A DNA stretch of 41,642 nt, taken from a virus. Its lineage: Duplodnaviria; Caudoviricetes. The notes below the pieces were generated by a model, which saw nothing but the letters and a program-made list of their open reading frames with translations, made no database searches and was not told the origin of the DNA. Every line of letters starts with the position of its first letter. Position 1 is the stretch's first letter. Positions 1 through 41,519 of this stretch are shown piece after piece. A program made the position numbers and the translations under genes. The stretch spans positions 1 through 41,642 of the IMG/VR virus record IMGVR_UViG_3300039239_000005. One strand, 5' to 3'.

Positions 1-125
1 TGGTCGGTGGCGAAGGTCGGGTTGCGAACCTCCAGCGCGTGCCGCAGCCGCACTCCGTCCTTCTCCTTGGGCAACAGCTTCAGGAAGCCCTCGAAATCCT
101 CTGGGTCAAACTTCTTCGTGCCCAT
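1..125 (-). pseudogene. 3' part of interrupted host DUF72 (YecE-like) gene, continues beyond window start
   Basis: Minus strand from 125 reads MGTKKFDPEDFEGFLKLLPKEKDGVRLRHALEVRNPTFATD (ALEVR motif typical of DUF72). It joins in frame with the fragment at 41518..41642. Confidence 0.85.
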
Positions 126-160
126 ACCTTGCCCTACTAATGCACAAGCCCTGCATTAGG
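124..160. repeat. Left attachment junction (element-side arm)
   Basis: AT crossover then ACCTTGCCCTACTAATGCACAAGCCCTG, an imperfect inverted repeat of the right arm (reverse complement ACTTTGGGAGACTATTAAACAGCCTCTG). A 2-bp core with symmetric arms is typical of serine-integrase attP. Confidence 0.8.
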
Positions 161-207
161 GGTTCCCGCCGCCCTTAAGGGCAGGCCCTGCCTCGATAAA
201 TATCGAG

Positions 208-765
208 ATGGAAAATGAAATCTGCCGAAAATGCCAAACCCTCCTTATCAGCGGCTCCAACTGGTATGCGTCATCCGAACGCAATCGCACCCGCATTTGC
301 AAGGGCTGTCAGATTGCGAGGGTTCGAGAGAATCAAAAGGCGTCGGCCAGTTGGTCTGACTACGTTGTTCGCTACCGCAGCGAAAATCTCGATGAGATTC
401 GTAAGCATGGGAGAGAACGCCATCGCCGGGTCTACGTCGGCGAGGTCGCAGAGCGATCACGCGAGAGAAATCGAGCTTGGTATAGAGACAACAAGCCCGA
501 AGCATCTGCCATCAGGGCGCGACGACGAGCGCGACTTAAGGGGAGCGAACGCGGCGGCGCCCCGAGTGAGATCGCAAAGGTCTATGCACTGGCCTCGGCC
601 CTGACCGAACGGTTTGGTGTGCCCTATCACGTCGATCACTTGATGCCCTTGGCCAAGGGCGGGAGCCACCACCAAGACAACCTTGTTGTGATGCGTGCTG
701 ATTGGAACATTGCCAAAGGCAGCAGGGTCATAACGCCGCTCATTACATTTTTCGCCCCAAGATAA
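208..765 (+). CDS. HNH endonuclease
   Basis: YHVDHLMPLAKGGSHHQDNLVVMRADWNIAKG HNH motif; N-terminal CxxC...CxxC. Confidence 0.9.
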   Translation: MENEICRKCQTLLISGSNWYASSERNRTRICKGCQIARVRENQKASASWSDYVVRYRSENLDEIRKHGRERHRRVYVGEVAERSRERNRAWYRDNKPEASAIRARRRARLKGSERGGAPSEIAKVYALASALTERFGVPYHVDHLMPLAKGGSHHQDNLVVMRADWNIAKGSRVITPLITFFAPR

Positions 766-772
766 GTAATGG

Positions 773-3205
773 GTGAACACCGAAACATATCGACAGAAGG
801 TCGCTCGTCAGATCGACCTTGAGAACGAGTCACGCGCGCTCGGCGCAAGCCGCTATCGCGCGAGCCGCCCCATGCCGTGGCGCAACGAGACCCGCGCCGC
901 TGACGAAGAGGCGGACCTCCCGCCCGGCCGTCAACTTCTCAAGCTGGCGACCGAGCCGACCGCCGCTGCGATCCGTGAGTTCTGCGAGCGCGTGGATCAT
1001 GGCGGCGCGGCGCGTGGCGTGGACGCCCACTTGATCCTGTCGCAGATCGGAGCCGACGAGGCCGCTTATCTCACAGGCCGGGTCGCACTCGACGCCGCCG
1101 CGAGCGGCATGAAGTTCACCGCCACCTGTATCGCGGTCGCCAACGCCATCATCGAACACATCCAGATGGACGGCCTTCGCCAGAACCGGAAGGATGTCTT
1201 TAAGGGGCTGCTCAAGTCCCAACAGAACGCTTCCTCTCTGGTCACGAGCAAGAAGCGCAAGGCCATCAAGGACATCATGATCGAACACGGGGTGGACCGC
1301 GCGTTCACCCTGCAACAGCGCGTTCGTGCGGGGGCCAAGGCCCTCGAACTGTTCTGCGATGTGACCGGCCTGTTCGTTATCGAGAGCATCGCGCGCGGCA
1401 CGAAGGTCATTCGACCGACCGAGGCCGTTCACCGTTGGCTCGAACAACAGCACGCCCGGTGCGAACTGTTGGAGCCGATTCATCTTCCGATGATCGTCCC
1501 GCCGCGCCGGTGGACCACGCCGTTCCGTGGCGGATACGTCACCAAGACGCCGGGTGCGCGCCTCGTGAAGCAGACGAACGCCGCCTATCACGAACATCTC
1601 CGCACAGTCGAAATGTCCGCCGTTTACTCGGCCGTGAACGCAATCCAATCGACGGCATGGCGAATCAACCGGCCGATCCTCGATGTGATCCGTGAGGTTT
1701 GGGACGGGGGCGGCGTGTTGGGTGGTCTACCCAATCGACAACCGCTCGAACTCCCGCCTCGCCCGCCCGAGTTCGCTCGTGACGAACAGGTGAAAGCCCG
1801 CTGGAAGCGCGAGGCCGCCGACATCCACGACCTGAACTCGGCCAACCTATCGAAGCGACTGGCGATCAGTCAGCGTCTATGGGTCGCGGAAAAGTTCGCT
1901 GACGAAGAGGCGATCTTCTTCCCGCACAGCGTGGACTTCCGAGGCCGCGTCTATCCGATCCCGTCCGCCGGTCCCAATCCGCAGGGCGACGACATCTGCA
2001 AGGCTCTGCTGACCTTCGCCGAAGGCCATCCGATCACCGACGCCGGAGCGGGTGCGCTCGCCATCCACATCGCCGGATTGTTCGGGGTCGATAAGGTCTC
2101 GCACGACGAACGCATGGCTTGGTTCTGGGCGAACGAGCATCTGGTTCTCGACAGCGCGAACAACCCTCTCGACGGCGCCCGCTTCTGGGCCGAAGCGGAC
2201 AGCCCCTTCATGGCTCTGGCCGCTTGCATCGAATGGGCGGGCTACATCCGCGAGGGCGCCGACTTCATCAGCCACCTGCCGGTCAGCCTCGACGGTTCGA
2301 ACAGCGGGCTACAGCACTTCTCGGCCATGCTCCGCGACCCTGTAGGGGCCAAGGCCGTCAACCTTGTGCCGGATGACCGGCCGCAGGACATCTATTCGGA
2401 CGTGGCGGCGAAGGCTCAAGCCCTCGTCGATCAGGATGCCGACGAAAGGGCGGTCGCATGGCGAGGCGGATTGGTCACGCGCAAGGTCGCCAAGCGTCCC
2501 TGCATGACCTTCACCTACAGCGCGACCCGGTTCGGCATGACGGACATGATCTATCAGACGCTCCGCGAACTGGACGCCAACGGTCAGCCCCACCTTGGGA
2601 CGGCCGACAACTACGCCTCGTCGCTCTACCTTTCCTACACCCTCTGGGATGCGATCTCGGACACGGTAGTCGCCGCCTCGACCGCCATGGCGTGGCTGCG
2701 CGAAGCGGCCAAGGTGATGACCGCCGCTGGTCAGCCGATTTGGTGGACGACGCCCACCGGCCTTCCGGTCCTGCAAACCTATCCCCGCCGTCGCAAGGAC
2801 CGGATGACGGTCTTTCACAAGAACAAGCGGCTTCAGATCAACCTTCAGCACAGTGCGCCGGGTATCGACGGTCAGCGTCAGGTCAACGGTATCAGCCCGA
2901 ACTTCATCCACTCGATGGATGCGGCCCACCTCATGGCCGTCGCCAACGCCTGTCACTACGCGGGCATCTATGACCTGTCCGTGGTGCATGACAGTTTCGG
3001 GGTTCACGCCTGTCGTGTCTTCGAACTGCGCTCGATTCTGCGAGAGACGTTCGCCGATCAATACAGCGTGGATAGGCTGGCCATGCTGCGTGACGAACTG
3101 ATCGCACAGCTACCGGAAGCTTACGCCGACAAGCTCCCGCCACTTCCGGCAATGGGCGACTTCGACATCAACGAGGTCCGCCGGTCGGATTACCTCTTCC
3201 ACTAA
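773..3205 (+). CDS. T7-like single-subunit DNA-directed RNA polymerase
   Basis: DFRGRVYP, motif A DGSNSGLQHF, motif B RKVAKRPCMTFTY, PNFIHSMDAAHL, motif C VHDSFG; 810 aa. Confidence 0.98.
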   Translation: MNTETYRQKVARQIDLENESRALGASRYRASRPMPWRNETRAADEEADLPPGRQLLKLATEPTAAAIREFCERVDHGGAARGVDAHLILSQIGADEAAYLTGRVALDAAASGMKFTATCIAVANAIIEHIQMDGLRQNRKDVFKGLLKSQQNASSLVTSKKRKAIKDIMIEHGVDRAFTLQQRVRAGAKALELFCDVTGLFVIESIARGTKVIRPTEAVHRWLEQQHARCELLEPIHLPMIVPPRRWTTPFRGGYVTKTPGARLVKQTNAAYHEHLRTVEMSAVYSAVNAIQSTAWRINRPILDVIREVWDGGGVLGGLPNRQPLELPPRPPEFARDEQVKARWKREAADIHDLNSANLSKRLAISQRLWVAEKFADEEAIFFPHSVDFRGRVYPIPSAGPNPQGDDICKALLTFAEGHPITDAGAGALAIHIAGLFGVDKVSHDERMAWFWANEHLVLDSANNPLDGARFWAEADSPFMALAACIEWAGYIREGADFISHLPVSLDGSNSGLQHFSAMLRDPVGAKAVNLVPDDRPQDIYSDVAAKAQALVDQDADERAVAWRGGLVTRKVAKRPCMTFTYSATRFGMTDMIYQTLRELDANGQPHLGTADNYASSLYLSYTLWDAISDTVVAASTAMAWLREAAKVMTAAGQPIWWTTPTGLPVLQTYPRRRKDRMTVFHKNKRLQINLQHSAPGIDGQRQVNGISPNFIHSMDAAHLMAVANACHYAGIYDLSVVHDSFGVHACRVFELRSILRETFADQYSVDRLAMLRDELIAQLPEAYADKLPPLPAMGDFDINEVRRSDYLFH

Positions 3206-3250
3206 ATGCCTTGAGCCAATGAATGCATTCTAACTCCCTATTGAGAGACC
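3203..3250 (+). promoter_or_regulatory. Candidate operator plus candidate phage-RNAP promoter heading the late operon
   Basis: TAAATGCCTT motif, perfect palindrome GAATGCATTC (3221-3230), and TAACTCCCTATTGAGAGA loosely resembling T7 GACTCACTATAGGGAGA, directly after the RNAP stop. Confidence 0.4.
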
Positions 3251-3260: not shown

Positions 3261-3551
3261 ATGATTTTTTCAGACCCTAATCTCGGCGACCGAGTTCGAA
3301 GCGCATCGACCGTCGCCGTCCTGCGTGAACCCGCCTTCCTTGTTCTGGACCGTGTGTCGAACCTCGACCCGGCGGATCAGATTCGCGCCACGTTCCTCGC
3401 CGCTGTCGCTATGGCGTTGGGCGCCGGGATCAACCCACACGAAGAGGTCGCGCGCTCGCTCCGCATGATGTCGGATGCCGAAGCAGACCATACCGTCCAC
3501 GTTCAGGCGATCCGCGACTATGCGGAAAATGAACTGCGCCGTTTCGTTTGA
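3261..3551 (+). CDS. Hypothetical phage protein
   Basis: 96-aa ORF with phage-like codon usage, first in the late operon; no recognisable motif. Confidence 0.75.
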   Translation: MIFSDPNLGDRVRSASTVAVLREPAFLVLDRVSNLDPADQIRATFLAAVAMALGAGINPHEEVARSLRMMSDAEADHTVHVQAIRDYAENELRRFV

Positions 3552-3866
3552 TCCCCGATGTCGGTGTGATCGTCGGATTTGTGCGGCTGTTGCAGTCGCC
3601 GGTCTCGCACTTCCTCATGCCGACTGACTTGGCCGACGAAGCATCGGCATGGCTTCTGTCGCAGGGGATCGAGCATCATTGGAATGACCTCTATCTCATG
3701 GGTCTACGACCAGACCGGCGGGACAGTAATCTCTATCGCCGACGACTTCGGCGCCTTCGCATTCAGGATGTGGGGCGATGAGACGGTTATCGGACCCGTG
3801 ATTTTTTCCACGCCTTTGCCCGGCAAGTGGCCCCGCAATATTTCGGCGGACGACCCGCCTTGTTGA
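3548..3866 (+). pseudogene. Frameshifted small phage protein related to the 36764-37904 paralogs
   Basis: Frame 3548 gives ...DLADEASAWLLSQGIEHHW and frame 3579 gives ...TVISIADDFGAFAFRMWGDE. Removing one base near 3683 (TGGAATG) fuses them. Confidence 0.5.
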
Positions 3867-4137
3867 CGGTGATAGCCCCCTGACATTGGCCGCAGTGCAC
3901 GGGCGTCGGCTTCACCTCTGCTCGCATCGCTCGGTATCGAGCCTTTTCACGACAAAGCTGCGAGCAGAATTTCTTCGATGATCGGATGATCTGAAACGCT
4001 GTCCCGCAGACAGGACATGCGCCTTCCGCCTTGGCCAACTCTTTACGGGGCCGTGGCGTAGCAAACCCTCTGGATGCGTCACTCGCTGCCAGCAGTTCTT
4101 CGATCCTCTCGGCCCATCGGCCCTCACATTTCAGCAT
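3787..4137 (-). CDS. Double zinc-finger protein (antisense to late operon); ORF could extend to 4188
   Basis: CPVC...KKFCSQLC and HCGQC...PPKYCGATC, two CxxC..CxxxC units; basic. Confidence 0.65.
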   Translation of the reverse strand: MLKCEGRWAERIEELLAASDASRGFATPRPRKELAKAEGACPVCGTAFQIIRSSKKFCSQLCREKARYRAMRAEVKPTPVHCGQCQGAITVNKAGRPPKYCGATCRAKAWKKSRVR

Positions 4138-4186: not shown

Positions 4187-4399
4187 ATGAGCCGACCGAA
4201 GCCCTCTGCCTACGCGCAGACCCGACCGTTCCCCACCAACGTCGCCGAGTTCCTTGAATACCTCGACTTCAAGTTCCCCGAGCAGGAGCCACGGGCTGGC
4301 GACACCCTCGACGCCATCATGTTCAAGGCGGGCCAGCGCGCCGTCGCCCTCCAGATGCGCCGGGAGTTCGAAGCCTCCCTCAAACGCAAGGAGGTCTGA
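4187..4399 (+). CDS. Small conserved-position protein upstream of portal (T7 gp6.7-like slot)
   Basis: ATG 4187 after AAAGGG; MSRPKP...IMFKAGQRAV, similar to small pre-portal proteins of T7-like phages. Confidence 0.7.
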   Translation: MSRPKPSAYAQTRPFPTNVAEFLEYLDFKFPEQEPRAGDTLDAIMFKAGQRAVALQMRREFEASLKRKEV

Positions 4400-4401
4400 C
4401 C

Positions 4402-4713
4402 ATGTGCCTCGTCAAAAAGCCGAAGGTTGTCGCCGCACCGGCTGACAAAGAACCGGCGATCATCACCAACCCTTACCTCGACGGTCTGCCCGCGATTGAA
4501 CGCGCCCGTGCTGGCGGCGTCCGCTCGCTGACGATCCCCCGTGGGGCATCGGGATCAGCGTCGGTCGCGCCGACGACGCCGCGTTCGCCGACCATCCCCG
4601 CGCCTTCGACAGGCGGCGGATCGCCCACGGTTGATCCCGGCATGACCCTTTTGGCCAAGCTGCCCGGCACAGTCGGATCGCTCGCCCGCAAAGCCCTTTC
4701 GAAAGCGAAATAA
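4402..4713 (+). CDS. Putative virion assembly protein (T7 gp7.3-like slot)
   Basis: AAGGAGG RBS; MC..KKPK start; Pro/Ser-rich; immediately before portal. Confidence 0.65.
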   Translation: MCLVKKPKVVAAPADKEPAIITNPYLDGLPAIERARAGGVRSLTIPRGASGSASVAPTTPRSPTIPAPSTGGGSPTVDPGMTLLAKLPGTVGSLARKALSKAK

Positions 4714-4719
4714 TCCCGC

Positions 4720-6240
4720 ATGAAAACCGCAGCAGCGCGTTTCAGCGCGCTGTCTGCATCCCGTTCGACCGTCTTGGAGAACGCTCGCACCGCATCGCGC
4801 GTGACGATCCCCGGTCTGATCCCGCTTGAGGGTCAGAACGAACACTACACCCCGACCCAACCCTATCAGAGCGTCGGCGCCGATGGCGTCCGCAGCCTTT
4901 CGGCTCGGCTCCTGATGACGCTGTTCCCGACCAACGTCGGGTTCTTCCGCCTGAACGTGGACGCCGCCGTGGCGCAGTTCACCGGCGAGGAAAAGAACGC
5001 GGTCGATGTCCAACTGGCGCAGTTCGCACAGTCGGCGAACAACCTTCTGGATGACCGCCGCGCACGCGCTGTGTTGGCCGAAGTGCTTCGTCACCTCGTG
5101 ATCGCTGGCAATGTCCTCCTGCACATCCCGCTCAAGGATACGCCGCGCATCTATCGCCTCGACCAGTATGTGGTGAAGCGCGATAGCCGTGGCGTCCCGA
5201 CCCTCATCATCGCTCGCGAAAGCATCCACGTCTCGAACCTGTCGGTTGAGACCCGGACGGCTGTCGGGCTGACCCTCGACCCGGACAAGCAAGACCAGAC
5301 GGTCGATGTCTACACGGTCGTTGAGAAGCGCGGCGAGAACCACGCCCAATACCAAGAGATCAACGGCAAGCGCGTCCCCGGTTCGGAGAGCGAGACTCCG
5401 ATTGAGAAGTCGGGTTGGCTGGCTCTGCGTTGGCTGGCGATCCCTGCCAACGACTACGGTCGCTCGCACGTCACCGAATATATCGGCGACCTTCTGGCCC
5501 TTGAGGAACTGAACGAGTCGATGATCGCCTACACCGCGATCTCGTCGGACATTAAGTTCTTCGTCCAGCCCAACTCTGTCATCGACCTCGATGTGGTTGT
5601 GGGTTCGGAGCGCGGCTCCTTCCACACCGGCGACGCCGGTGACATCACGGTCTTGAGCCTCGACAAACAGGCAGACTTTGTGATCGCCGAGCGTCTGGCG
5701 TCCGCAATCGAAGCGCGCGTCGCCAAGGCATTCCTGATCCAGCAGTTCCGCAACGCCGAGCGCGTGACGGCCGAAGAGATTCGGATGTCGTCAGAGGAAT
5801 TGGAGAACACGCTGGGCGGCACCTACTCGGTGCTGTCGGCCGAACTGCAATACGCCGTCGCGACCCGCTACCTCTACATCGCAGAGCGCGAAAAGCTGAT
5901 CCCGAGCCTACCGGCTGGGATCAAGCCGAAGGTCGTCACCGGCCTCGCCGCGCTTGGCGCCGCAGCCGAAGTGAACCGCGTTCGGACGTGGGCTTCGGAT
6001 GTCATGGGATTGCTGGGCCAAGCCGAGTTCATCGCCAAGGTCGATACGACCGCGCTGATGAACAAGCTGGGCGTCGAGCATGGCGTGACAGACCTGCAAA
6101 GCCTTCTGAAATCACCAGAACAAATCGAAGCCGAGCAGCAACAGGCGATGATGGCGCAAGCCACTCAAGCCGCTGCACCGGGCTTCATGGACGCCGCGAT
6201 GAAAGCCGCGTCGCAAGACCCCAACCAAGGAACTGAATGA
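4720..6240 (+). CDS. Head-tail connector (portal), T7 gp8-like
   Basis: PYQSVGADGVRSLSARL..LFP, DYGRSHV.EY.GDL, RNAERVTAEEIR, ELENTLGGTYS.LS.ELQ. Confidence 0.96.
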   Translation: MKTAAARFSALSASRSTVLENARTASRVTIPGLIPLEGQNEHYTPTQPYQSVGADGVRSLSARLLMTLFPTNVGFFRLNVDAAVAQFTGEEKNAVDVQLAQFAQSANNLLDDRRARAVLAEVLRHLVIAGNVLLHIPLKDTPRIYRLDQYVVKRDSRGVPTLIIARESIHVSNLSVETRTAVGLTLDPDKQDQTVDVYTVVEKRGENHAQYQEINGKRVPGSESETPIEKSGWLALRWLAIPANDYGRSHVTEYIGDLLALEELNESMIAYTAISSDIKFFVQPNSVIDLDVVVGSERGSFHTGDAGDITVLSLDKQADFVIAERLASAIEARVAKAFLIQQFRNAERVTAEEIRMSSEELENTLGGTYSVLSAELQYAVATRYLYIAEREKLIPSLPAGIKPKVVTGLAALGAAAEVNRVRTWASDVMGLLGQAEFIAKVDTTALMNKLGVEHGVTDLQSLLKSPEQIEAEQQQAMMAQATQAAAPGFMDAAMKAASQDPNQGTE

Positions 6241-7082
6241 GCCTCGAACTCCCGGTCAATGAGACCGCTTCGGAAACTCCGAACGACTATTCCAACCTTC
6301 CGGCTTCGGCCTTCCCGGCGGGCGTTGACCCCGCCACCTACGCTCAATCGCTCAACAAGGCCGAGCCGGAAACCCCTTCGAAACCTGAACGCCCTGCACA
6401 CGTCCCCGAGAAATTCTGGGACGCCGACAAGGGCGAGGCCCGCTGGGAAGACATGGCCAAATCCTACGCCGAGCTTGAAGCCAAGCAGCGCGGGAAAGCC
6501 GAAGACCCGGCCAAGACCGACAGCCTGAAGATCGAACAGACCGAAGGCGAGACCCCGGCCGAAGACGCACCGAACCCGATCACGTCGGCGTTCGAAGGCT
6601 TCGCCAAGGTCTATGAAGAATCGCGAGGCCAGCCCGGCGCCGACGACATCCAGAAGATTGTCGATCTCGGAGTCCCGCAAGGCATCGTGCAAAACTATCT
6701 GGCTGGGCTTGAAGCCCTCGCCCGTGAGCAGTTCTCGAACGCCTACGCCGCCGCTGGCGGTGAGGATCAGTTCAACGCCGCGATTGATTGGGCCAAGACC
6801 GGCCTGACCCCTGCGGAACAGGACAGCTACAACACTCTCGTCGAAAGCCAAGCGACCGCCCGTCAGGGTGTCGAATGGCTGATGTCGAAGTTCAACGCCG
6901 CGCGCCCTGCCGAAGGCTCTCTGATCGAGGCCGAAGCAAGCCCGGCATCTGGCGATGTCTTCCGCTCCAAGGCGGAAATGACAGCCGCTATCCAAGACCC
7001 TCGCTACAAGACGGACCCGGCGTATCGAAACGACGTGGCCCAGAAACTGTGGCGTTCGAACGCAGCGGGTTCCCTGCTGTAA
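6237..7082 (+). CDS. Capsid scaffolding protein, T7 gp9-like
   Basis: MAKSYAELE, GGEDQFNAAIDWA, C-terminal FRSKAEMTAAIQDPRYKTDPAYR; lies between portal and capsid. Confidence 0.93.
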   Translation: MSLELPVNETASETPNDYSNLPASAFPAGVDPATYAQSLNKAEPETPSKPERPAHVPEKFWDADKGEARWEDMAKSYAELEAKQRGKAEDPAKTDSLKIEQTEGETPAEDAPNPITSAFEGFAKVYEESRGQPGADDIQKIVDLGVPQGIVQNYLAGLEALAREQFSNAYAAAGGEDQFNAAIDWAKTGLTPAEQDSYNTLVESQATARQGVEWLMSKFNAARPAEGSLIEAEASPASGDVFRSKAEMTAAIQDPRYKTDPAYRNDVAQKLWRSNAAGSLL

Positions 7083-7332
7083 TCCAACCGTAAGACCACG
7101 CCCGCTCGTCCTATCGGGACTTGCTTGGCGGGGCCGCACAGTTCCCCGCGCACACAGGGAACTGACCGCCTTCGGGCGGGCGGCCGGTGAAAGCCCGGCC
7201 TAACTCTTTCTCCCAAATCAAAGCGGAAACATCCGGCTGCGAAGAGGCCGGTTTCGACCGCACAACCTCATGCGCCAGCGGACTCCGATTGATCGACGGG
7301 AGCCAAAAACTCTCTCTCAATCAAGGAGCCTA
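7083..7332 (+). ncRNA. Putative structured RNA leader upstream of the major capsid gene
   Basis: 250-bp non-coding gap with consecutive hairpins: CAGTTCCC/GGGAACTG, CCGCC-TTCG-GGCGG, GGCCGG-TGAAAGC-CCGGCC, CCGGCT...GGCCGG. Confidence 0.4.
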
Positions 7333-8286
7333 ATGGCTAACTCCATCCCCTCGCGTCCCGGTTTCAAGACCGGCGGCGCCGTTGGCAATCTCGACCTCTT
7401 CCTCGACCTGTTCGCGGGCGAAGTCCTCTCCACCTACGAAGCCAAGACGATCATGCGCGGTCTGCACCGCATCGTGAATCTGAACGGCGGCAAGTCGTAT
7501 CGCTACCCGGTCATGGGTCAGGCGACCGGCGGCTACCACACCCCCGGCGTCGAGATCACCGGCGACCAGATCGCACACGACGAGATCGTCGTGACCCCGG
7601 ACGACAAGCTCGTCTCGTCGGTCTTCATCGCCGACATCGACGAAGCTCTGAACCACTACGAAGTTCGCTCGGCCTACGCTGACGAAATCGGTGGCTTCCT
7701 CGCCCGTCACTTCGACGCCAACGCAATCCGCGCCCTCATCAAGGCCGCTCGCGACGCGGGCAAGCTGGGCCAAGGCGGCGGCAACGTCACCGGCTCCACG
7801 CTCCTGACGGACGTGACGAAGCTGTTCGACGCTTTCTCGGAAGCGAAGAAGGTCATGGACCTGAAGAACGTCGATGTGGACACCAAGCCGATCTACGGCA
7901 TGGTCGCGACTCCGCAATGGTATGCCCTCAAGCAGTCCGATAAGAACCTGAACCGCGACTACAACGGCGGTTCGGCTGACGTTCGCAACATGGCTCTGAC
8001 GACCATCGACGGCGTTCAGATCATGAAGTCGAACCTCGCTCCGTTCGGCGTCAACCAATCCGCCACCCCCGGCGTGCTGGCTCGCTATCAGGGCGACTAT
8101 TCGAAGACTGTCGGCGTCGTCTGGACCCCGGACGCTCTCGTCACCGCACAGGTGCAAGACGTGTCGATCCAGCACGAAGAGCAGATCAGCAAGCAAGGCC
8201 ACCTGATCGTCGGTCGCTACATGAGCGGCACGAACGTCCTGCGCGCCACCGATGCGGTCGAACTCCGCACCGGCGCCCCGACCTAA
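7333..8286 (+). CDS. Major capsid protein, T7 gp10-like
   Basis: AAGGAG RBS then MANS...; LFLDLFAGEVL, GKSYRYPVMG, IADIDEALNHYEVRSAY. Confidence 0.96.
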   Translation: MANSIPSRPGFKTGGAVGNLDLFLDLFAGEVLSTYEAKTIMRGLHRIVNLNGGKSYRYPVMGQATGGYHTPGVEITGDQIAHDEIVVTPDDKLVSSVFIADIDEALNHYEVRSAYADEIGGFLARHFDANAIRALIKAARDAGKLGQGGGNVTGSTLLTDVTKLFDAFSEAKKVMDLKNVDVDTKPIYGMVATPQWYALKQSDKNLNRDYNGGSADVRNMALTTIDGVQIMKSNLAPFGVNQSATPGVLARYQGDYSKTVGVVWTPDALVTAQVQDVSIQHEEQISKQGHLIVGRYMSGTNVLRATDAVELRTGAPT

Positions 8287-8314
8287 TCCCGGTCAGGCAC
8301 ACACCGAACCAATG

Positions 8315-8352
8315 AAAGGGTCGCCCTCCGAAAGGGGGCGGCCCTTTTTTTC
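8315..8352 (+). terminator. Intrinsic terminator after capsid gene (T-phi position)
   Basis: AAAGGGTCGCCCTCC-GAAA-GGGGGCGGCCCTTT followed by a T-run. Confidence 0.88.
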
Positions 8353-8379
8353 ATCCTCGTTCCGAAAGGAGGCCGCGCC

Positions 8380-31619: not shown

Positions 31620-31784
31620 GTGCCTCAAGAGTTCACCCGCCTAATCGACCTGACCGCCGGTCACTGTGACCTGACGGTTTGGGTCCGCCCGGACACTGAC
31701 CTCGATAGCCGCTTTGAAGCGGTCTGCGACATCAGCGGCGAACGCCTCGCGATCAACGGCTGGATGTTCGTGGTCGTCGAATGA
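31620..31784 (+). CDS. Small hypothetical early protein
   Basis: AAAGGA RBS, GTG start; 54 aa; co-oriented with the ArdC-like gene. Confidence 0.6.
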   Translation: MPQEFTRLIDLTAGHCDLTVWVRPDTDLDSRFEAVCDISGERLAINGWMFVVVE

Positions 31785-31838: not shown

Positions 31839-33353
31839 ATGAAAGCTGACATCTATCAAACCGTCACGGATTCCATCATCGCCATGCTTGAGGCTGGCGT
31901 CCGCCCTTGGGCGCCCGGTCACAACGCGAAGGCTTGCGGTCTGCCTGTCATCCCGACCCGCGCCAACGGCGAGGCATATCGCGGCCTGAACGTCGCGCTC
32001 TTGTGGGGCGCGGCCGAAATGAAAGGCTATCGTCACCACACTTGGATGACGTTCAATCAGGCCAAGGCGTTAGGCGGATGCGTCCGCAGAGGCGAGAAGT
32101 CATCGCCCGTCGTCTATTGGGGAACCTTCAAGGCTCAAGCCGATGACGCGGACGAAGGCGACGACGGCAAGGCCCGTCTGTTCGCGAAGGGCTATGCGGT
32201 TTTCAACGTCGAACAAATCGACGGCTTGCCCGCCTCGGTTTATGAACCGGCGACGGTCGAACATTCCGAGACCCGGATCGCGAAGGCCGATGCATGGGCG
32301 GTCGCGACTGGCGCCGACATTCGCCACGGCGGTTCCCAAGCCTTCTATTCGCCCAAGGGTGACTTTGTGCAGGTTCCGCCCTTCGCGGCGTATGGCGAGC
32401 CGGAACGCTATTACTCGACCTTGTGCCATGAACTGACGCATTGGAGCGGCGCGAAGGCCCGGCTTGATCGCCAGTTTGGCAAACGGTTCGGCGACAAGGC
32501 TTATGCGTTTGAGGAATTGGTGGCCGAAATGGGCGCGGCCTTCTCTTGCGCCCGCCTTGGGATCGAGAACGAAACCCGCGAGGATCACGCCTCTTATCTG
32601 GCGTCATGGCTGAACGTCCTGAAAGCCGACAAGCGCGCGATTTTCACGGCGGCGAGCAAGGCTCAAGCCGCTTGTGACTACCTTTTCGAACTGGCCAGCA
32701 AGGCCGAAATCAAGCCCGTGGAGCGGCCTTCCGTCCCGACTGGCGTCATCTGCCTTCCTGACCTGTCTGGCCTATCCAGCGAGCCGGTTTCGGCCGTTGT
32801 GACCGATGACGGCGACGATGATCCGACGCCGCCTGTCGCGCCTTCGCCCGCGCCTGTCTCGACTGGCGTTGGGGCCGGCTTCCTGTCGCGTCTGTCAGCG
32901 TTCAAGGGAGGGCGTGTCCGCGCGCCTTCCCGCGTCGCGGCTCGCAAGGTCCGCACGGTCGATGACATCGTGCAGGACATCACCACGCCTGAACCTGTCG
33001 CCAAGCCCGCCCGCCCGTTCCATCCGCGCCGTGATCCTTCGCTATGCGAGTTTCTGTCTATCCGGGGCATCTGCGACGATGGCGGCGAACTTCGCGGACG
33101 TGACCTCGACCGGTGGCATCGCGAGGCGCCGTTCCGCCGTAAGCTTGTTCGGGCGGATGGCGTGTCCCTTGAGACGGCTGCACGTCAGGCATGGGAGGCG
33201 GGCTATTTCGATGATGTCGCCGTCCCGACGATGGATAGCAGCGACAACATGCACCCGGTCACGCCAGCGATGTTGATCGCGGAGATGGATCGCGAACTGC
33301 GCGACGACTACGCGCACGTTTGGGGTGCCCATGACGAAGAGTTCTTCGCGTGA
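31839..33353 (+). CDS. ardC: ArdC-like antirestriction/ssDNA-binding protein with zincin (MPTase) domain and C-terminal extension
   Basis: DIYQTVTDSII..LE.GVRPW, YRGLNV.LLW, WMTFNQAK..GG.VR.GEK, VFNVEQ, HELTHW, YAFEELVAE, HASYLASWL; extra ~200 aa after a Pro/acidic linker. Confidence 0.92.
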   Translation: MKADIYQTVTDSIIAMLEAGVRPWAPGHNAKACGLPVIPTRANGEAYRGLNVALLWGAAEMKGYRHHTWMTFNQAKALGGCVRRGEKSSPVVYWGTFKAQADDADEGDDGKARLFAKGYAVFNVEQIDGLPASVYEPATVEHSETRIAKADAWAVATGADIRHGGSQAFYSPKGDFVQVPPFAAYGEPERYYSTLCHELTHWSGAKARLDRQFGKRFGDKAYAFEELVAEMGAAFSCARLGIENETREDHASYLASWLNVLKADKRAIFTAASKAQAACDYLFELASKAEIKPVERPSVPTGVICLPDLSGLSSEPVSAVVTDDGDDDPTPPVAPSPAPVSTGVGAGFLSRLSAFKGGRVRAPSRVAARKVRTVDDIVQDITTPEPVAKPARPFHPRRDPSLCEFLSIRGICDDGGELRGRDLDRWHREAPFRRKLVRADGVSLETAARQAWEAGYFDDVAVPTMDSSDNMHPVTPAMLIAEMDRELRDDYAHVWGAHDEEFFA

Positions 33354-33586: not shown

Positions 33587-33680
33587 GCCGAAAGATATGG
33601 CGGCGATCCAGCATATCCGCCTAAATAGTTTTCATAACCTGTTTCGCGTGAGGAAGACGAGGAACAGGGCTTGAAAGATA

Positions 33681-33709
33681 TTGGATAAATATGTGTAGTA
33701 TCGTATACT
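33681..33709 (+). promoter_or_regulatory. Sigma70-like promoter
   Basis: TTGGAT-N17-TATACT in an AT-rich patch. Confidence 0.55.
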
Positions 33710-33785: not shown

Positions 33786-34445
33786 ATGAACGACCCTTTT
33801 GCAGCCGTCGTGGCTGAACTTGATTTCCTCGGGCAGGACAACGCCCTTCTCAACGCCGCCCTCTACAAGAACCCTGACTTCGTTCGATGGTGTGAGACCA
33901 TCGCCAACCGTCAGCACAAGGTCCGCGCATCGGCCGTGACGCCCCTGCCCGCGCTGGAGACGATCTTGGCCCTTGAGGCGACGGTCTTCGACAATGGCGA
34001 GGGGCCGAAGTTCCGGCACAAAATCACGGTGCAAGCCTACCTCGGCGACTACCCGCAATGGACCCGGCCGAACTGGAAGGCGACGGCGACACTCTGGCCC
34101 CACGATGTCGCCGTGAAGACGGCGAAGAAATCGAAGGCAAAGTTCTCCGAAGCTACGCTGGCCGTGGTCGAGGCTCTGGCTGGTCAAGGCTCCGGCTTCG
34201 TCGGCGTCTGCATGCACACTGGCGCCGGGATGGGTTCGACCTACAACGACCAACACGTCGTCTGGATCGACATCGAGGCCAACTCGGCGATGGTCTACTC
34301 GCCGAACGCTCACTTCTGGCTGGCGCCGTTCGACAAGCTGGACGCCAACGGGAAAGCCCTCAAGGCGAACGGCATCCTGCACTCGCGTTCGTCTTCTGCC
34401 GACACTCTGGACCACTGGTCCACGGGCGAGCCGGTTTCGCTTTGA
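33786..34445 (+). CDS. Hypothetical protein (~219 aa) upstream of the inverted-repeat cluster
   Basis: Long ORF with strong GC3 bias; no recognised motif. Confidence 0.75.
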   Translation: MNDPFAAVVAELDFLGQDNALLNAALYKNPDFVRWCETIANRQHKVRASAVTPLPALETILALEATVFDNGEGPKFRHKITVQAYLGDYPQWTRPNWKATATLWPHDVAVKTAKKSKAKFSEATLAVVEALAGQGSGFVGVCMHTGAGMGSTYNDQHVVWIDIEANSAMVYSPNAHFWLAPFDKLDANGKALKANGILHSRSSSADTLDHWSTGEPVSL

Positions 34446-34462
34446 CTATTCGCCGGGAGCGA

Positions 34463-34649
34463 TGCTCCCTCTATTAATACCTACGAATACTAATATATTA
34501 ATAGAGGGAGCACCCCTCGGCCGAATACGGTTCTGATCGGTTCCCTCTAATAGAGAGCATCACCTGACGGTTCGCCCGACAATAGGGACATAGGCTTGTC
34601 CCCGCCTCGTTCCTCGTCGGCGCCAAACCTGTTCTCTAATAGAGGGAGC
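34463..34649. repeat. Perfect 17-bp inverted repeat plus related copies (AT-rich core)
   Basis: TGCTCCCTCTATTAATA (34463-34479) / TATTAATAGAGGGAGCA (34496-34512) with a 16-nt spacer; TAATAGAGAGCA at 34548; TAATAGAGGGAGC again at 34637-34649. Confidence 0.9.
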
Positions 34650-34826
34650 GGGGTTGCGGCGGCGCAGCACAAGCAGCGGGCAAACCTGCCGACATCTTAC
34701 ACCGATGAAACCAGTGGAACCCCTGCGGAAAATGCCGCAAAAAAAAAGAGCGGTGACCTCGATCACCGCCCCACAGAGTTGCTTCGCGCTCTCTCAACAC
34801 TGCCTGAAAGAGCGGGTTCCTAAAAC

Positions 34827-35327
34827 TTATGCAGATTTCTTCATAGCGTCAGCGTTCACAGCGGCGTCGGCAATGCTCGTGAGGTCTTCGTCGGTTTGCG
34901 ACTCTTCGTTCAAAGTCTCTTCGAGCAGCGCGGCAGCATCTTTTAGGCCCAGCACATTCGCCCAACGTCGCAGAGTGCCGTAGCGTGTAATCTCGTAATG
35001 TTCGACGGCTTGGGCTGCGGCCAGCAGACCGGCATCCAGAGCGGGATTATCCTTATATTCCTCCATGATCTCATCACCCTCGGCGAGAATGCCTTCGATG
35101 GCATCGCACGTCTTCCCTCGGGGGGCCTTGCCGATGATTTCGAAGACTTGTTGCAGCCGTTCAATTTGCCCTTCGGTTTGGTCTTTGTGCTTTTCAAACG
35201 CAGCCTTCAGTTCGGGTGACTGTGCGGCGCGCGCCATCTTTGGCAGCGACTTCAGAATTTTCCGTTCTGCGTAATAGATATCCTTCAGGGTGTCGTGGAA
35301 CAGGGTGTCGAGTGTTTTCTCGGCCAT
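34827..35327 (-). CDS. Ferritin-like DUF892 (YciE/YciF family) protein
   Basis: LKDIYYAERKILKSLPKMA, HKDQTEGQIERL, CDAIEGI, AAQAVEHYEITRYGTL; GGAG RBS before ATG 35327. Confidence 0.93.
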   Translation of the reverse strand: MAEKTLDTLFHDTLKDIYYAERKILKSLPKMARAAQSPELKAAFEKHKDQTEGQIERLQQVFEIIGKAPRGKTCDAIEGILAEGDEIMEEYKDNPALDAGLLAAAQAVEHYEITRYGTLRRWANVLGLKDAAALLEETLNEESQTDEDLTSIADAAVNADAMKKSA

Positions 35328-35550
35328 AACGATATCTCCGTTGGGTGAGACACATAAAAGCACAGCTACACAGGTCGGTTCCTTCCGCGAAAGGTGTGCA
35401 CCGGCGACAGGACGCGACTGAAGTTCCACCGCGTTTTGAGGGTCGCTGACTAAATACAAACATAGCCGCACCGACGAAGGTCAAGTCGTGGGTCGGGCCA
35501 ATGTTTGAGACGCACTTCCAGCCTGAACAGCTTGTTCGTCATCACTGAAG

Positions 35551-35588
35551 AGGCCCTGCCGATCTTGACCATCGGCGGGGCCTTTTTT
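35551..35588 (+). terminator. Intrinsic terminator-like hairpin homologous to 33737..33776
   Basis: AGGCCCTGCCGAT-CTTGACC-ATCGGCGGGGCCT then TTTTT. Confidence 0.78.
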
Positions 35589-35598
35589 GGTGACAACA

Positions 35599-36105
35599 AT
35601 GGAGTTTTGGAAGCCGATCCCCGGCTCAAAATATGAGGCTTCAAGCCTCGGGCGCATCCGCAGCCCGCGAGGAAACATCCTCAAGCCCTACAACCACGGC
35701 CTCGGCTATCATCTGGTCGGCATGAAGTTCGATCACGAACCGAAGGTCGTCACCCGCACTGTGCATCGCCTTGTCGCGTTGGCCTTCCACGGACCTCGGC
35801 CGGAGGGTTTGGACATTGCCCACGGCAACTGCATCAAGACCGACAACCGCCCGTCGAACCTGCGCTACGCCACGCGGTCCGAGAATCTTCAGGACAGCTT
35901 CGCCATGGGCGAGTTCCGAACGGGTCGCCCATTCGTCTACCCATGGGAGCTTCTGACTGTAGGCCAAAGCTTCACCTCGAACCCGATCAAACGACTGTCG
36001 ATCAGGCGCATGATCTTGGAGGCCAATAAGCAGTTCGGCCGCACCTTTGATGTCGGCAAAGCCGCGAACGACGACGGCTCTTGGACCGTCACGAGGGTCG
36101 CGTGA
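35599..36105 (+). CDS. NUMOD4-HNH homing endonuclease
   Basis: EFWKPIPG..YEASSLGRIRS (NUMOD4); VHRLVALAF...IAHGNCIKTDNRPSNLRYATRSEN (HNH). Confidence 0.92.
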   Translation: MEFWKPIPGSKYEASSLGRIRSPRGNILKPYNHGLGYHLVGMKFDHEPKVVTRTVHRLVALAFHGPRPEGLDIAHGNCIKTDNRPSNLRYATRSENLQDSFAMGEFRTGRPFVYPWELLTVGQSFTSNPIKRLSIRRMILEANKQFGRTFDVGKAANDDGSWTVTRVA

Positions 36106-38182: not shown

Positions 38183-38479
38183 TTGGACGTGCTGCTCTAC
38201 ATGATCCTGCCTTGGGTCGGGCTGTATTACGCGATGATGGCTCTCGTCGGCGTGTGCAATGGCCTCAAGCACGTCTGGATTCACATGCGCGGCGGTCAGG
38301 AGGCGGCTTCCCAGCGCGAAGACGCTTTCCGCCGGAGTGCGGCTTACAAAACCCACTTGAAGAACTACCGCGACGACGCGCGTCGTCAGGCTCGGCGCGC
38401 TGCTGACGCCGCCCGCGTGGCGTCTCAACGTGCTGCCGCCCAGCGCATCAAGTCCAACGCCGTGCGGCTGTTCCAATGA
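38183..38479 (+). CDS. Membrane-anchored hypothetical protein
   Basis: GGGAG RBS, TTG start, hydrophobic N-terminus then a basic helix. Confidence 0.65.
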   Translation: MDVLLYMILPWVGLYYAMMALVGVCNGLKHVWIHMRGGQEAASQREDAFRRSAAYKTHLKNYRDDARRQARRAADAARVASQRAAAQRIKSNAVRLFQ

Positions 38480-38577
38480 AGTCCGCCGCCCTGTCGTGTG
38501 ACGACACACTCGATATGTTCATTGAGCTTAAGGCCAAGCCGACGCATCCTTTGCGCCTCGTGCAAAAGGATTCGGCC

Positions 38578-38967
38578 ATGGCCTCGATCAAACCCCACGT
38601 CTGGACGTTCATGACGTTCGCTGCCGCCCTTCAAACCCTCGCGAAGGAACTGCCGACCCGTGTGACGGTGCGCCAACTGCTGACGTTCGCGATGATCGTC
38701 GAACAGGTAAGCCTTGGTCACAACATCACCATCGCGACCATCCGTGAGAAGGCTGGGAGCGATAAGCACGGTGATGAATTGCTCGGTCAGTCCATCGGCC
38801 GCAGCTACCAACTCTTCCTCAAGCCCACGAAGAAGGAACCTGACGCTCTGGGCTGGGCCTACGTCGAGGAAAACGAGGACGACCGACGCGAGAAATTCCT
38901 GCGCCTGACCCCGGAGGGCGAAGAGGTCGCCCTCAAGATCGCCAAGCTGCTGAAAGAGAAACCGTGA
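38578..38967 (+). CDS. MarR-like winged-helix regulator upstream of integrase (ORF could start at 38476)
   Basis: VTVRQLLTF...LGQSIGRSY..F...LGW..VEENEDDRREKFLRLTPEG wing motif; AAAGGA RBS before ATG 38578. Confidence 0.8.
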   Translation: MASIKPHVWTFMTFAAALQTLAKELPTRVTVRQLLTFAMIVEQVSLGHNITIATIREKAGSDKHGDELLGQSIGRSYQLFLKPTKKEPDALGWAYVEENEDDRREKFLRLTPEGEEVALKIAKLLKEKP

Positions 38968-39851
38968 AGGTCCGCGAACTCCTGCGCTACTGCGAAGTGC
39001 ACGAATGGCGGGGCGCCCGATCCAAGGCCACCCTCCGCACCAACATCAAGCAGCTTACCGCTCTGATCGGCGACGAGGACATCGCTGATCTGCATTACAC
39101 CCGGCTCAAGAAGCTGGCGTCCGACCTTGAGACTTACGGCCGGAAGGCGGCGGCGCCCGCGACCGTCAAGCGCAAGCTGGACACCCTGTCGAACGCGCTG
39201 ACCATCGCCACGCGGATGACGAACGACGATGGCTCACCGGTCCTGAAAGCCAAGCCGACTTTCCCGACGTTCGACATCAACAACATCCAAGAGCGCACGA
39301 TTTCCGACGCCGAACTGGCGGACATGTTCGAGGTCATCGCCGCCCGGCGCGAGGCCGAGCCGCACCGCGACTGGACGCGGTTCGACGCCTTCATGAGGTT
39401 CTTGCTGGCCACGGCCTGTCGGCGAGGCGAGGCGTTGCGGGTCTGGCCGGGACACATCGAGCAGCGCGACGCCCGGCACTTCGTGATCTTCGAACGCTAC
39501 ACGACCAAGAGTAAGAAGCCCCGGATCGTCCCGCTGTCGGCCGAGATTGTCAGGCTGCTTCCGGCACTGCGCCTACAGGCGGGCAATGGCCCGCTCTTTC
39601 CCTTCACCGCATCGGTTCTCTGGGGAATGTGGAAGGCGATCAGGCAGGACATGGCCGGGCGCGGTCATGATTTTTCGTTGGTCCGCTATCACTCCACCCG
39701 CCACACAACGCTGACCAAGGCGATGAAGCGATACCCTATCGCGCTCGTGTCCAAGCTCGCCGGTCACGCCAGCATCCAGATTACGGCTGATCGCTACGGC
39801 CACCTGTCGGCTGATGACCTCGTGGGTATGGTGGACGAGATCGCCGCCTAA
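38964..39851 (+). CDS. Tyrosine recombinase/integrase
   Basis: R (TACRRGEAL), K (TKSKKPR), HxxR (YHSTRHT), H (AGHASIQIT), Y (DRYGH) all present. Confidence 0.93.
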   Translation: MKVRELLRYCEVHEWRGARSKATLRTNIKQLTALIGDEDIADLHYTRLKKLASDLETYGRKAAAPATVKRKLDTLSNALTIATRMTNDDGSPVLKAKPTFPTFDINNIQERTISDAELADMFEVIAARREAEPHRDWTRFDAFMRFLLATACRRGEALRVWPGHIEQRDARHFVIFERYTTKSKKPRIVPLSAEIVRLLPALRLQAGNGPLFPFTASVLWGMWKAIRQDMAGRGHDFSLVRYHSTRHTTLTKAMKRYPIALVSKLAGHASIQITADRYGHLSADDLVGMVDEIAA

Positions 39852-41476
39852 TGGGTTTCGTCCGCGAACTCCAACGGCCCGCGATAATCACCCAACTCTT
39901 TGCCGGTGATCGTGCCTTCGATGTTCGGCATGGGGATGTCGAACGTCATCATGTCCTCGCCGATCCAGCGGAAGCGGTCGCCCATCCCGACGTAAATCCC
40001 GCCATCGGCTGGCATGATGAAGTCGAACAGGTCGTTGAGCATGGCGTTCGCCTTGGCGCGGGCCAGATAGACATCGGCATCCGGCGCCTCGCCCTCGACC
40101 ACGCTCAACCAATCAATGGTGTTGCGGATCGCCTCGTCGCCGCGCGTCTTGGTCCGCCGCTCAATCCCCATCCGCAGTTCGGCCGCTTCCTGTTCGAGGA
40201 TAGTCAGTTCATCCCGGCGACTGGCCAGACGTTCGGCGACGCCCGGCACCCTCTCTTCAAGCTGATCGAGTAGCGTTTCCATCCGACGCTTCACGTCGTC
40301 TATCTGGGCCAGCTTCACCACGAGAGCCGCCGTGTCGGGCGCCGAACGGTCCTCGTTCATGCGCGCGCGCATCAGGAAGAACATCAGCCGTTCCTCCACG
40401 TCGGTCGCGAGATAGCGGGTGGTGTTGTCGCAGTTGTGCTTCCGGCTCTGCTGGTAGCATCGGAAATGGCGGACGGCGGTCGAGTTCGCCCGCGATCCGA
40501 GGATCAGAGTTCCGCCACACTGCTCGCACAGGCCAAGGCCAAGCAGCAGATTGGCGAAGGTCTTGCCCCTACGGCCCTTGCCGCCGCCGCGCTTATTGCG
40601 CCGGGCCAGCATGTCTTGAGCGGTGTAGAACGTCGCGTCGTCGATCACGCGGGGATAGTAGTTCTCGATGATGTCGCCATCGGCCTCGCGTCCCATGCGC
40701 TGGCCCGGATTGTTGGTTGTGAGCGTCGGCTGATAGTAGCCGCAGACCGAAGGCGACCGCAGGATCGTCAACACATAGCCCTGATGCCAGCCGTCAGACC
40801 CTTTGACGAACGGCGGCACCTTCTCGGCGTTCAGCCTCGACGAAATGGCCGTGATCCCGAGGCCCTGATTACATTCGTCGAAGATGCGGCCGACGATCTT
40901 GGCCCGGTCGGCGATCAGCACGAATTTTTTGGACCGCTCGTCGAACTTGGTCCACGCCGGGCCGCGCCTCGACAGAACCTCGCCGGTCTCCCGCGCCCGC
41001 CGTTTCTTGTCCGCCCATGCAGCCCGCAATTTCTCGGCACGGGCTTTGTTCTCGTTGTGCGCCCGGCTCATGACGATGACCGCGCGCATGATGTCCATGG
41101 CGTCGGACCCGGCGTGATACTCGTGACCATCCACGAGGGTCACGACCTTGATCCCGGCCAGCGTGATCGACGTGAGCAGGTTGACCGCCACCATTTCTGT
41201 CTCACGGGACAGACGGTCGAAGCTCTCAATCAGGAAGTAGGAGCCGGTCGGGATGTCGCCTTGCTCGATCCTCTTGAGGAAGCTGGCCAGCGCGCCGCGC
41301 ACCCGGTGTTCGCCTTTGTAGGCAGAGACCCCAAGGTCGCGAGTGGTGGTGTCGAGTTCAACATCGGGCCGGGCCGCAGCCCAATCTTTAGCCGCCTGTA
41401 GCTGACGCCGGAGCGAGTCGCCCTCGCGCTGGGCCGCACTCGAAAAACGCATATAGGAGTAGGCTTTGACCGGCAT
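39848..41476 (-). CDS. Large serine recombinase (serine integrase)
   Basis: YMRFSS catalytic Ser, FDRLSR, recombinase domain, CEQCG...FRC...C zinc ribbon, coiled coil; start codon ~40 bp from the junction. Confidence 0.95.
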   Translation of the reverse strand: MPVKAYSYMRFSSAAQREGDSLRRQLQAAKDWAAARPDVELDTTTRDLGVSAYKGEHRVRGALASFLKRIEQGDIPTGSYFLIESFDRLSRETEMVAVNLLTSITLAGIKVVTLVDGHEYHAGSDAMDIMRAVIVMSRAHNENKARAEKLRAAWADKKRRARETGEVLSRRGPAWTKFDERSKKFVLIADRAKIVGRIFDECNQGLGITAISSRLNAEKVPPFVKGSDGWHQGYVLTILRSPSVCGYYQPTLTTNNPGQRMGREADGDIIENYYPRVIDDATFYTAQDMLARRNKRGGGKGRRGKTFANLLLGLGLCEQCGGTLILGSRANSTAVRHFRCYQQSRKHNCDNTTRYLATDVEERLMFFLMRARMNEDRSAPDTAALVVKLAQIDDVKRRMETLLDQLEERVPGVAERLASRRDELTILEQEAAELRMGIERRTKTRGDEAIRNTIDWLSVVEGEAPDADVYLARAKANAMLNDLFDFIMPADGGIYVGMGDRFRWIGEDMMTFDIPMPNIEGTITGKELGDYRGPLEFADETH

Positions 41477-41482
41477 ATCGGA

Positions 41483-41519
41483 CCAATATCAGAGGCTGTT
41501 TAATAGTCTCCCAAAGTAT
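41483..41519. repeat. Right attachment junction (element-side arm)
   Basis: ...CAGAGGCTGTTTAATAGTCTCCCAAAGT-AT; imperfect inverted repeat of the left arm; host-like coding starts at 41518. Confidence 0.8.

Follow-up and report, generated by a model that had tools for sequence, protein, structure and literature searches.

A T7-like prophage clade with its own virion, no recognisable replisome and T4-late-type promoter boxes

How can a prophage that encodes a T7-type RNA polymerase (RNAP) and a complete virion propagate when no recognisable DNA replication module accompanies them? The question is raised by a 41,642-bp virus contig (IMG/VR record IMGVR_UViG_3300039239_000005; analysed at full length and hereafter called the window), which holds an integrated element of ~41.4 kb with both junctions inside it. 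The element belongs to a clade of T7 relatives that have lost their replication block, carry a likely replication initiator with a predicted origin in most members, and bear TAAATA boxes resembling the late promoters of T4. The explanation that best fits these features, and one given somewhat better than an even chance, is that of a virion-coding satellite that is triggered by a T4-like lytic phage and borrows its replisome and lysis functions.

The element has the single-subunit RNAP and the core virion genes of Autographiviridae (portal, scaffold, capsid, tail tube A/B and TerL, as listed in a section of PMC12361551) and lacks the T7-type replication block that is typical, if not universal, in this family. 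The PHROGs scan covered 141 of the 284 open reading frames (ORFs) of at least 50 amino acids (aa), in sets of 56 and 85, with the 56 also compared to Pfam; the remainder are mostly shadows of virion genes. Among these 141, no DNA polymerase, primase, helicase, single-stranded DNA-binding protein (SSB), exonuclease, resolvase, ligase, lysozyme or amidase was recognised. Six-frame tblastn at E<=1e-3 likewise gave no match in the window to the class II set of Caulobacter phage S2B, six proteins that comprise SSB, endonuclease I, endolysin, primase-helicase, DNA polymerase and exonuclease; in the positive controls, 5/5 phages or prophages matched 5-6 of the 6. No endolysin was found by PHROGs, Pfam or tblastn with the S2B set, and the sole wall-lytic domain in the window is an M23 peptidase within an internal virion protein. 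Searches with PF03796 (DnaB_C) were discarded, as they failed to detect G420, a positive control with a primase-helicase of the S2B type. The genes around the site of loss are:

773..3205, plus strand: T7-type single-subunit RNA polymerase, intact (PHROG 414, E 1e-231)
3234..3247, plus strand: candidate promoter for the element's own RNAP, with a CTATTGA core, conserved behind RNAP across the clade
3261..3551, plus strand: conserved 96-aa gene, homologous to S2B gp52, bordering the lost class II block on its left
3787..4137, minus strand: zinc-finger gene at the site of the deletion, with a TAAATA box ahead of it at 4147 (homology)
4188..26875, plus strand: complete T7-like virion and packaging module (PHROG, Pfam)

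The closest cultured phages by RNAP identity are S2B (57%) and 'Mycobacterium phage jiawei' (53%). Both keep the class II block between RNAP and portal, in T7 order, and the site of loss is therefore 3205-4190, downstream of RNAP, with the endolysin among the genes removed. The virion module encodes portal, scaffold, capsid, tail tube A/B, internal proteins (one with the M23 domain), two fibres, a holin-like protein, TerS and TerL. A second candidate promoter of the CTATTGA type follows terL in 6/8 elements examined.

A sequence-only reading of the window had described its gene inventory as complete, had recognised no replication module, and had judged RNAP, the portal-to-terminase genes and both recombinases to be intact. 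The first of these is borne out by a host DUF72 gene split at an AT dinucleotide, consecutive parts of it flanking the two junctions, and the last by open frames throughout and by RNAP catalytic motifs at 507, 570-582 and 739. The second holds for recognisable genes and is qualified by a likely initiator and origin at 33786-34445 and 34460-34660. The phiKMV-like gene order assumed there, with the loss upstream of RNAP, is contradicted by S2B and jiawei.

To place the loss in its lineage, 84 RNAP loci were mapped, and 19 whole or near-whole clade elements were compared with 6 replisome-bearing relatives as controls. At 25 loci with RNAPs 61-98% identical, the RNAP-portal gap measures 1.2-2.3 kb and contains no class II match, whereas more distant RNAP loci keep the block wherever enough DNA follows, with the exceptions of L123 and of L086/L129, where only the endonuclease and amidase are kept. 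None of the 19 elements matches any of the six S2B class II proteins by tblastn. In a quick-method tree with a midpoint root, the replisome-less RNAPs (24 distinct sequences) group as a single clade with SH-aLRT 100, which has L086 as its sister and is nested among S2B-like temperate phages; the TerL and portal trees agree on its monophyly (SH-aLRT 100). The 96-aa gene is present in 19/19 clade elements and 6/6 controls, and the zinc-finger gene in 14/19 versus 0/6. Genes gained by the clade and absent from 6/6 controls are ArdC (17/19, the other two records ending earlier) and the ~55-aa gene preceding it (16/19). Ratios of nonsynonymous to synonymous substitution (dN/dS), calculated by the simple Nei-Gojobori method under which distant pairs are near saturation, are 0.00-0.25 for RNAP and virion genes against G002 and G003, and 0.13-0.16 for the gene of the likely initiator against G326/G236. 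By these ratios the clade is under purifying selection and not decaying, and by gene content the replisome loss is clade-wide and conserved, not a one-off deletion.

These results sustain the distinct, conserved lifestyle proposed in the sequence-only reading, with monophyly in all three trees, dN/dS far below 1 and a retained packaging-end signature. Two findings that would have spoken against it, retention of the block in close relatives and neutral decay of virion genes, did not materialise. A third, a replication gene among the unassigned ORFs, was found in part: the window has a likely initiator and four relatives have a likely primase-helicase, with no polymerase in any.

The second line of evidence concerns the promoters. 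The window has 8 copies of TAAATA, all co-oriented with a downstream gene, including the following:

197..202, plus strand: TAAATA box before the HNH gene and RNAP, with an ATG 5 nt behind, suggesting a leaderless message (box survey)
208..765, plus strand: HNH endonuclease, inserted in this copy only (PHROG 1035, E 8.5e-15)
33622..33691, plus strand: two TAAATA boxes, then a terminator-like hairpin, before the gene of the likely initiator (box survey)

The HNH gene is not present at the corresponding place in G400a, where the box directly precedes RNAP. Clade elements contain 3-9 copies of TAAATA each, compared with 0-1 in the six replisome-bearing relatives. TAA(A/G)TA lies within -60..+30 of the RNAP start at 29/29 replisome-less loci (near-copies included) versus 2/45 others; S2B has its own repeated promoter-like motif in place of the box. 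With start codons used as a proxy for transcript starts, 33/119 contexts have a start codon 4-5 nt past the box, versus 5/117 (TCAATA) and 0/84 in controls. This spacing fits the geometry of T4 late promoters, with a short TAAATA core, no -35 element and a start 5 nt behind. In G400, 15/36 VMTAAATA sites fall within two elements that cover ~3% of the DNA, and 21/36 lie outside, in 3.1 Mb. Host flanks contain the box only 6 times in 210,500 bp. The box has no conserved -35.

Late promoters of T4 consist of TATAAATA at -13 to -6 without a -35, and the late consensus of Aeh1 is CTAAATA (passages of PMC1524935 and PMC2988020). The T4-like Caulobacter phage Cr30, which has an annotated gp55, carries TAAGTA before 8/26 listed gene starts and a box before 5/12 further starts, among them those of the capsid, prohead-core and sheath genes, where the box reads CTAAATA. 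The boxes described here share the short, -10-only form and differ in standing on a prophage, often placed for leaderless messages; neither a gp55 gene nor any other gene for a box-reading factor was found in the element. Two prophages outside the clade, in G200 and on an island of G326, have boxes without a T7 RNAP, and the element's own RNAP is therefore an unlikely box reader. On this evidence, triggering by a T4-like late sigma factor is quite probable.

The third line of evidence is a variable slot behind ArdC, represented in the window by the following features:

31839..33353, plus strand: ArdC-family anti-restriction protein with an extra C-terminal domain, second gene past the predicted left genome end (PF08401 + PF18818)
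33786..34445, plus strand: orphan 219-aa protein, likely replication initiator (ORF call from 33777; slot exclusivity, profile)
34460..34660, no strand: AT-rich inverted repeat (17-bp arms, 16-nt spacer) and two further TAATAGAG copies, predicted origin (repeat analysis)

Exactly one of three gene families occupies this slot in 17/19 elements, the two remaining records ending early. Eleven elements have a 219-aa protein here (in G001 its gene is on another contig), four a 963-aa protein and two a 460-aa protein. No element has two slot families, and 0/6 controls have any. An AT-rich inverted or direct repeat array stands directly 3' of the 219-aa gene at 14/14 loci, its sequence varying by lineage, and the 219-aa gene of G200 likewise has an array. 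A profile of the 219-aa protein retrieves 127 proteins, and its predicted model has a mean confidence (pLDDT) of 83. The protein has no match in Pfam, Atlas, Foldseek PDB or cultured phages, 0/92 family members match a PHROG, and the best E against PDB profiles is 1.2. Structural comparison of the model returned only uncharacterised proteins in BFVD (template-modelling score ~0.45) and generic barrels in VIA (best Z 5.8, root-mean-square deviation 2.5, 78 aligned), with no RepA-like fold in Foldseek PDB or VIA. These failed functional searches show neither a new fold nor an absence of function. From its exclusive position and the adjoining repeats, the pair at 33786-34445 and 34460-34660 is likely a replication initiator plus origin.

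Two other readings of this region were rejected. A type III toxin-antitoxin system has against it that the repeats are downstream and inverted, with no Rfam match; against a protelomerase target, a spacer separates the inverted-repeat arms. A metagenome scan with P0097 gave no match. Upstream of the slot gene, 33590-33780 contains a conserved cassette boundary motif, a stem-loop and the terminator-like hairpin, and could be an attenuator or small RNA. The extra C-terminal domain of ArdC (~120 aa, 32950-33353) follows a proline-rich linker and is conserved without a Pfam match.

The 963-aa slot protein (model pLDDT 86.6) matches superfamily 2 (SF2) helicases (Foldseek DinG/XPD, E 1e-9). Its invariant residues (E-x-D, SGNK-H-H and D) are ones that we take to resemble the motifs of archaeo-eukaryotic primases (AEP), and its Atlas look-alikes at 0.91-0.92 are AEP-TOTE and RepB primases, including primase-helicase fusions. 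The family is likely a primase-SF2 helicase. In the 460-aa protein, which is SF2-like, Walker-like motifs can be made out by eye; it has a weak profile link to the C-terminus of the 963-aa family (probability 14%) and no PDB or cultured-phage match. An inverted repeat upstream of the 963-aa gene in G414/G416 (L149/L153 region) has the 11-mer CTATTAATACC in common with the window's predicted origin.

Taken as a virion-coding satellite of a T4-like phage, the element would behave as follows. The lysogen would be silent until infection by a T4-like helper, whose gp55-type late sigma would fire the TAA(A/G)TA boxes, leading to synthesis of RNAP, the initiator and small regulators. The serine recombinase would excise the element, and the initiator would open the repeat array and recruit a borrowed replisome, most likely the helper's. 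The element's RNAP would then transcribe the virion operon, its terminase would package unit genomes with terminal repeats, and the helper's lysis would free the particles, which would infect through tails of their own, bring in ArdC early and re-integrate. The element's depth in run X1, equal to that of the host, also counts in favour of this explanation. Given a T4-like trigger, use of the helper's replisome rather than the host's is about as probable as the trigger itself, if not slightly more so, and it is from these two judgements together that the standing of the satellite explanation follows.

Several points weigh against this explanation. Expression, particles, attP circles and the helper are all unobserved, and the boxes speak for a trigger while leaving the owner of the replicating polymerase unspecified. 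Contigs of the stretch occur in RNA runs X9 and X16-X20, though these do not amount to evidence that it is expressed. AT-rich hexamers are generally commoner in the elements (permutations of the box number 8-42 versus 1-6, and the overlapping AAATAT 71, compared with 71 versus 2 for TAAATA). The form GCTAAATA presumably resembles the Caulobacter housekeeping -10 consensus, GCTANAWC. In Cr30 itself the box stands at only 13/38 listed gene starts; the gp55 scan matched only Cr30 and identified no T4-like phage of Brevundimonas, and a scan of five genomes or records for Cr30 gp55, run without a sensitivity control, was negative. The 219-aa protein has no functional match, so that the label 'initiator' depends on association, and the repeat arrays were judged without a shuffle control. 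The primase assignment of the 963-aa protein depends on motif resemblance and Atlas look-alikes, with no primase match in Pfam, PHROG or PDB profiles.

The foremost alternative is an autonomous temperate phage in which a lambda- or plasmid-style initiator and origin, served by the host replisome, took the place of the T7 replisome, with a host sigma factor reading the boxes. It is favoured by the initiator-plus-origin anatomy and by the closeness of GCTAAATA to the Caulobacter -10 consensus, and parts of PMC9860041 and PMC12361551 suggest that Autographiviridae without a DNA polymerase use that of the host. It is nonetheless unlikely: no endolysin was found, the box is rare in host DNA, lacks a conserved -35 and has T4 late spacing, and replisome-bearing sisters in related hosts lack it.

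Less likely still is a lifeboat prophage, woken by the late sigma factor of a T4-like phage and set free when that phage lyses the cell, but copied by host enzymes or serving mainly for defence, in competition with the invader. The same box evidence supports it, the boxes being silent on the source of the polymerase, and the variable cargo of relatives includes SIR2-like and AIPR-family genes (L031:17477-18568, L155:7468-8538, L039:8460-10361 and L149:1121-3022), which suggests defence functions. T4 infection, however, usually shuts off and degrades host DNA by the late phase, which favours a helper replisome; this is known for T4, and Cr30-like phages may differ. The precedent of the Vibrio satellite PLE, with its own initiator and a helper helicase and polymerase, points the same way (section of PMC13595925).

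It is very improbable that an S2B-like T7-type helper supplies the class II proteins in trans. Such a helper would make exactly the lost block, and S2B-like prophages occur in the same family, but the S2B-type promoter before RNAP has been replaced by a T4-type box, G400 contains two replisome-less elements and no third RNAP, and the new slot genes would be superfluous. The sequence-only reading had envisaged a satellite with a T7-like helper; its satellite part survives as the best explanation, with a T4-like helper in place of the T7-like one. Just as improbable is a host-domesticated gene transfer agent (GTA), as that reading had also proposed, or a decaying prophage: sequencing depth equal to that of the host and an ArdC broken in G005 and G412 would suit it, but the fixed locus, vertical inheritance and lack of an integrase that define a GTA are not what is found, with several integration sites and integrase types across a clade of patchy presence, both orientations at attB, a retained genome-end signature and dN/dS far below 1.

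Among known systems, S2B (MN857473) and jiawei (OR464703) are alike in virion order, in the cassette of MarR-like regulator and tyrosine integrase and in the terminal-repeat signature; they differ in keeping the class II block and in having no ArdC, slot genes or TAAATA boxes, and S2B has its own RNAP-type promoter before RNAP. S2B has been called temperate (title of a reference in PMC11434605), and temperate T7-like phages with MarR and integrase genes are known, such as LUZ100 (part of PMC10134795). T7-like RNAP and virion genes without a DNA polymerase also occur in the cyanopodovirus MPP-C (PMC9860041) and the marine AG-1.2 and AG-11 (PMC12361551), according to portions of these papers. 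MPP-C keeps SSB, primase-helicase and exonuclease, and AG-11 keeps primase and helicase, whereas the element has lost the whole block and the endolysin; the portions describing MPP-C and the AG group mention no helper.

As in satellite viruses, the element has its own encapsidation machinery, and a polymerase is absent from 19/19 elements (with the likely primase-helicase in 4 relatives). The Streptomyces satellites MulchRoom and MiniFlayer also have their own encapsidation machinery, lack key replication genes and need a virulent helper (parts of PMC10690885); compared by description only, the element differs in being a 41-kb T7-lineage genome with its own RNAP, a full podoviral tail and a predicted promoter-level trigger. 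PLE, integrated and woken by the lytic phage ICP1, combines its own initiator RepA with a helper helicase and probably a helper polymerase (PMC13595925, in part), but takes virion parts from its helper, whereas the element encodes its own virion. More generally, satellites of the PICI (phage-inducible chromosomal island), PLE and P4 types take capsid or tail from the helper, while the element has a complete head, tail and terminase set. T7-like phages without DNA polymerase and helper-dependent satellites that code for capsids are thus already known; the loss of the whole block plus endolysin is different. A search of the literature outside subscription papers and supplements turned up no account of the clade and none of T7-like prophages triggered through T4-type late transcription.

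The remaining features concern integration, genome ends and cargo:

124..125, no strand: left attachment junction, AT crossover in the host DUF72 gene (symmetric dinucleotide)
26872..28671, minus strand: double-domain DNA methyltransferase, cargo (PF01555)
28777..29226, minus strand: 149-aa gene behind a TAAATA box at 29237 (box survey, homology)
31205..31290, plus strand: predicted genome-end/terminal-repeat signature, a CCCCC..GGGGG hairpin with an upstream motif, resembling the S2B terminal repeat
31599..31784, plus strand: conserved ~55-aa gene before ArdC (homology)
34827..35471, minus strand: DUF892 ferritin-like cargo gene (PF05974)
35587..36105, plus strand: NUMOD4-HNH endonuclease behind a TAAATA box at 35451 (Pfam, box survey)
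38476..39851, plus strand: MarR-like regulator with a tyrosine recombinase reduced to 295 aa, together the ancestral lysogeny cassette (PHROG, relatives)
39848..41476, minus strand: large serine recombinase, likely the working integrase (PHROG 95)
41518..41519, no strand: right attachment junction, AT dinucleotide (DUF72 split)

The disrupted DUF72 gene lies on the minus strand, and its two 41-codon flanks are consecutive parts that align to positions 52-89 and 94-124 of the Pfam model. The names of matching proteins make Brevundimonas the most likely host. G404 has the same gene occupied in the opposite orientation, the same left end being joined to the gene's other half. In sequencing run X1, possibly the source of this record, in which the element's depth is 492.7 and the host's 486.5, the whole element is inverted at the AT crossover (window 98-152) in ~1/4 of molecules, with inverted-form junction contigs at depth 102-106 versus 324. 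The two orientations fit an active serine recombinase with a symmetric crossover dinucleotide; its dN/dS against G404 is 0.07. The tyrosine recombinase (38964-39851) is ~75 aa shorter than the S2B integrase (371 aa), a length of 295-300 aa being kept in 7 elements; full-length, divergently placed forms occur in G326 and G411-G413. The signature of the S2B terminal-repeat start recurs at ~31,260 in the window and is found in 16/19 elements (two records end before the site, and none was found in one). This conserved signature may mark a linear genome with direct terminal repeats. The DNA methyltransferase is present in 9/19 elements.

RNAP matches were found in 12/401 family genomes, and G400 carries two replisome-less elements. 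Sister to the clade is a 20-kb provirus in G418 (L157; also L086 and L129), with a TAAATA box at its RNAP, a retained endonuclease I and amidase, portal, unrelated middle genes, TerS/TerL, ArdC and the 219-aa family; it is possibly an intermediate with a different capsid module. Jiawei (L017) groups with Caulobacteraceae prophages in all three trees, and its stated Mycobacterium host looks doubtful.

The same box wiring is present beyond the clade, as read from sequence, in T7-like, sipho and myo prophages. A distant T7-like prophage (G031:C4:419000-463000; RNAP 33%) has the replisome-less layout and ArdC, a 219-aa-family gene accompanied by iterons, and TAAATA in 13 places, among them one ahead of the capsid gene; it is possibly an independent origin of this layout. 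The sipho-type prophage of G200 (C4:98000-134000; L181-L183) has a serine integrase, the 219-aa gene with repeats and 23 boxes, and the myo-type island of G326 (C1:1502000-1552000; L178-L180), a genome that also holds a clade member, has a serine integrase and 21 boxes. No replication gene was found among the ORFs covered by a non-exhaustive scan of the G200 and G326 prophages. Tentatively, and with slightly less than an even chance, these elements may belong to widespread 'inverse satellites', podo-, sipho- and myo-type prophages that make their own particles and outsource trigger, replisome and lysis to T4-like phages, through gp55-read promoters and a new initiator family with co-evolving origins; the clade would then be a stepwise conversion of a T7-like phage.

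Should the satellite explanation be correct, the T7 lineage, known for self-sufficiency, has given rise to a parasite of T4-like phages that reverses the usual satellite bargain, with a particle of its own and borrowed replication, and the trees resolve a path by which satellites arise. Many prophages regarded as 'defective' or 'uninducible' might then be awaiting a lytic phage, with a six-base box as a cheap means of finding them, and the 219-aa family would represent replication initiators of a new type. With Cr30 and laboratory strains of Caulobacter and Brevundimonas, the satellite idea lends itself to direct testing. Even without helper dependence, the element would still be an unusual T7-like phage with a new replicon.

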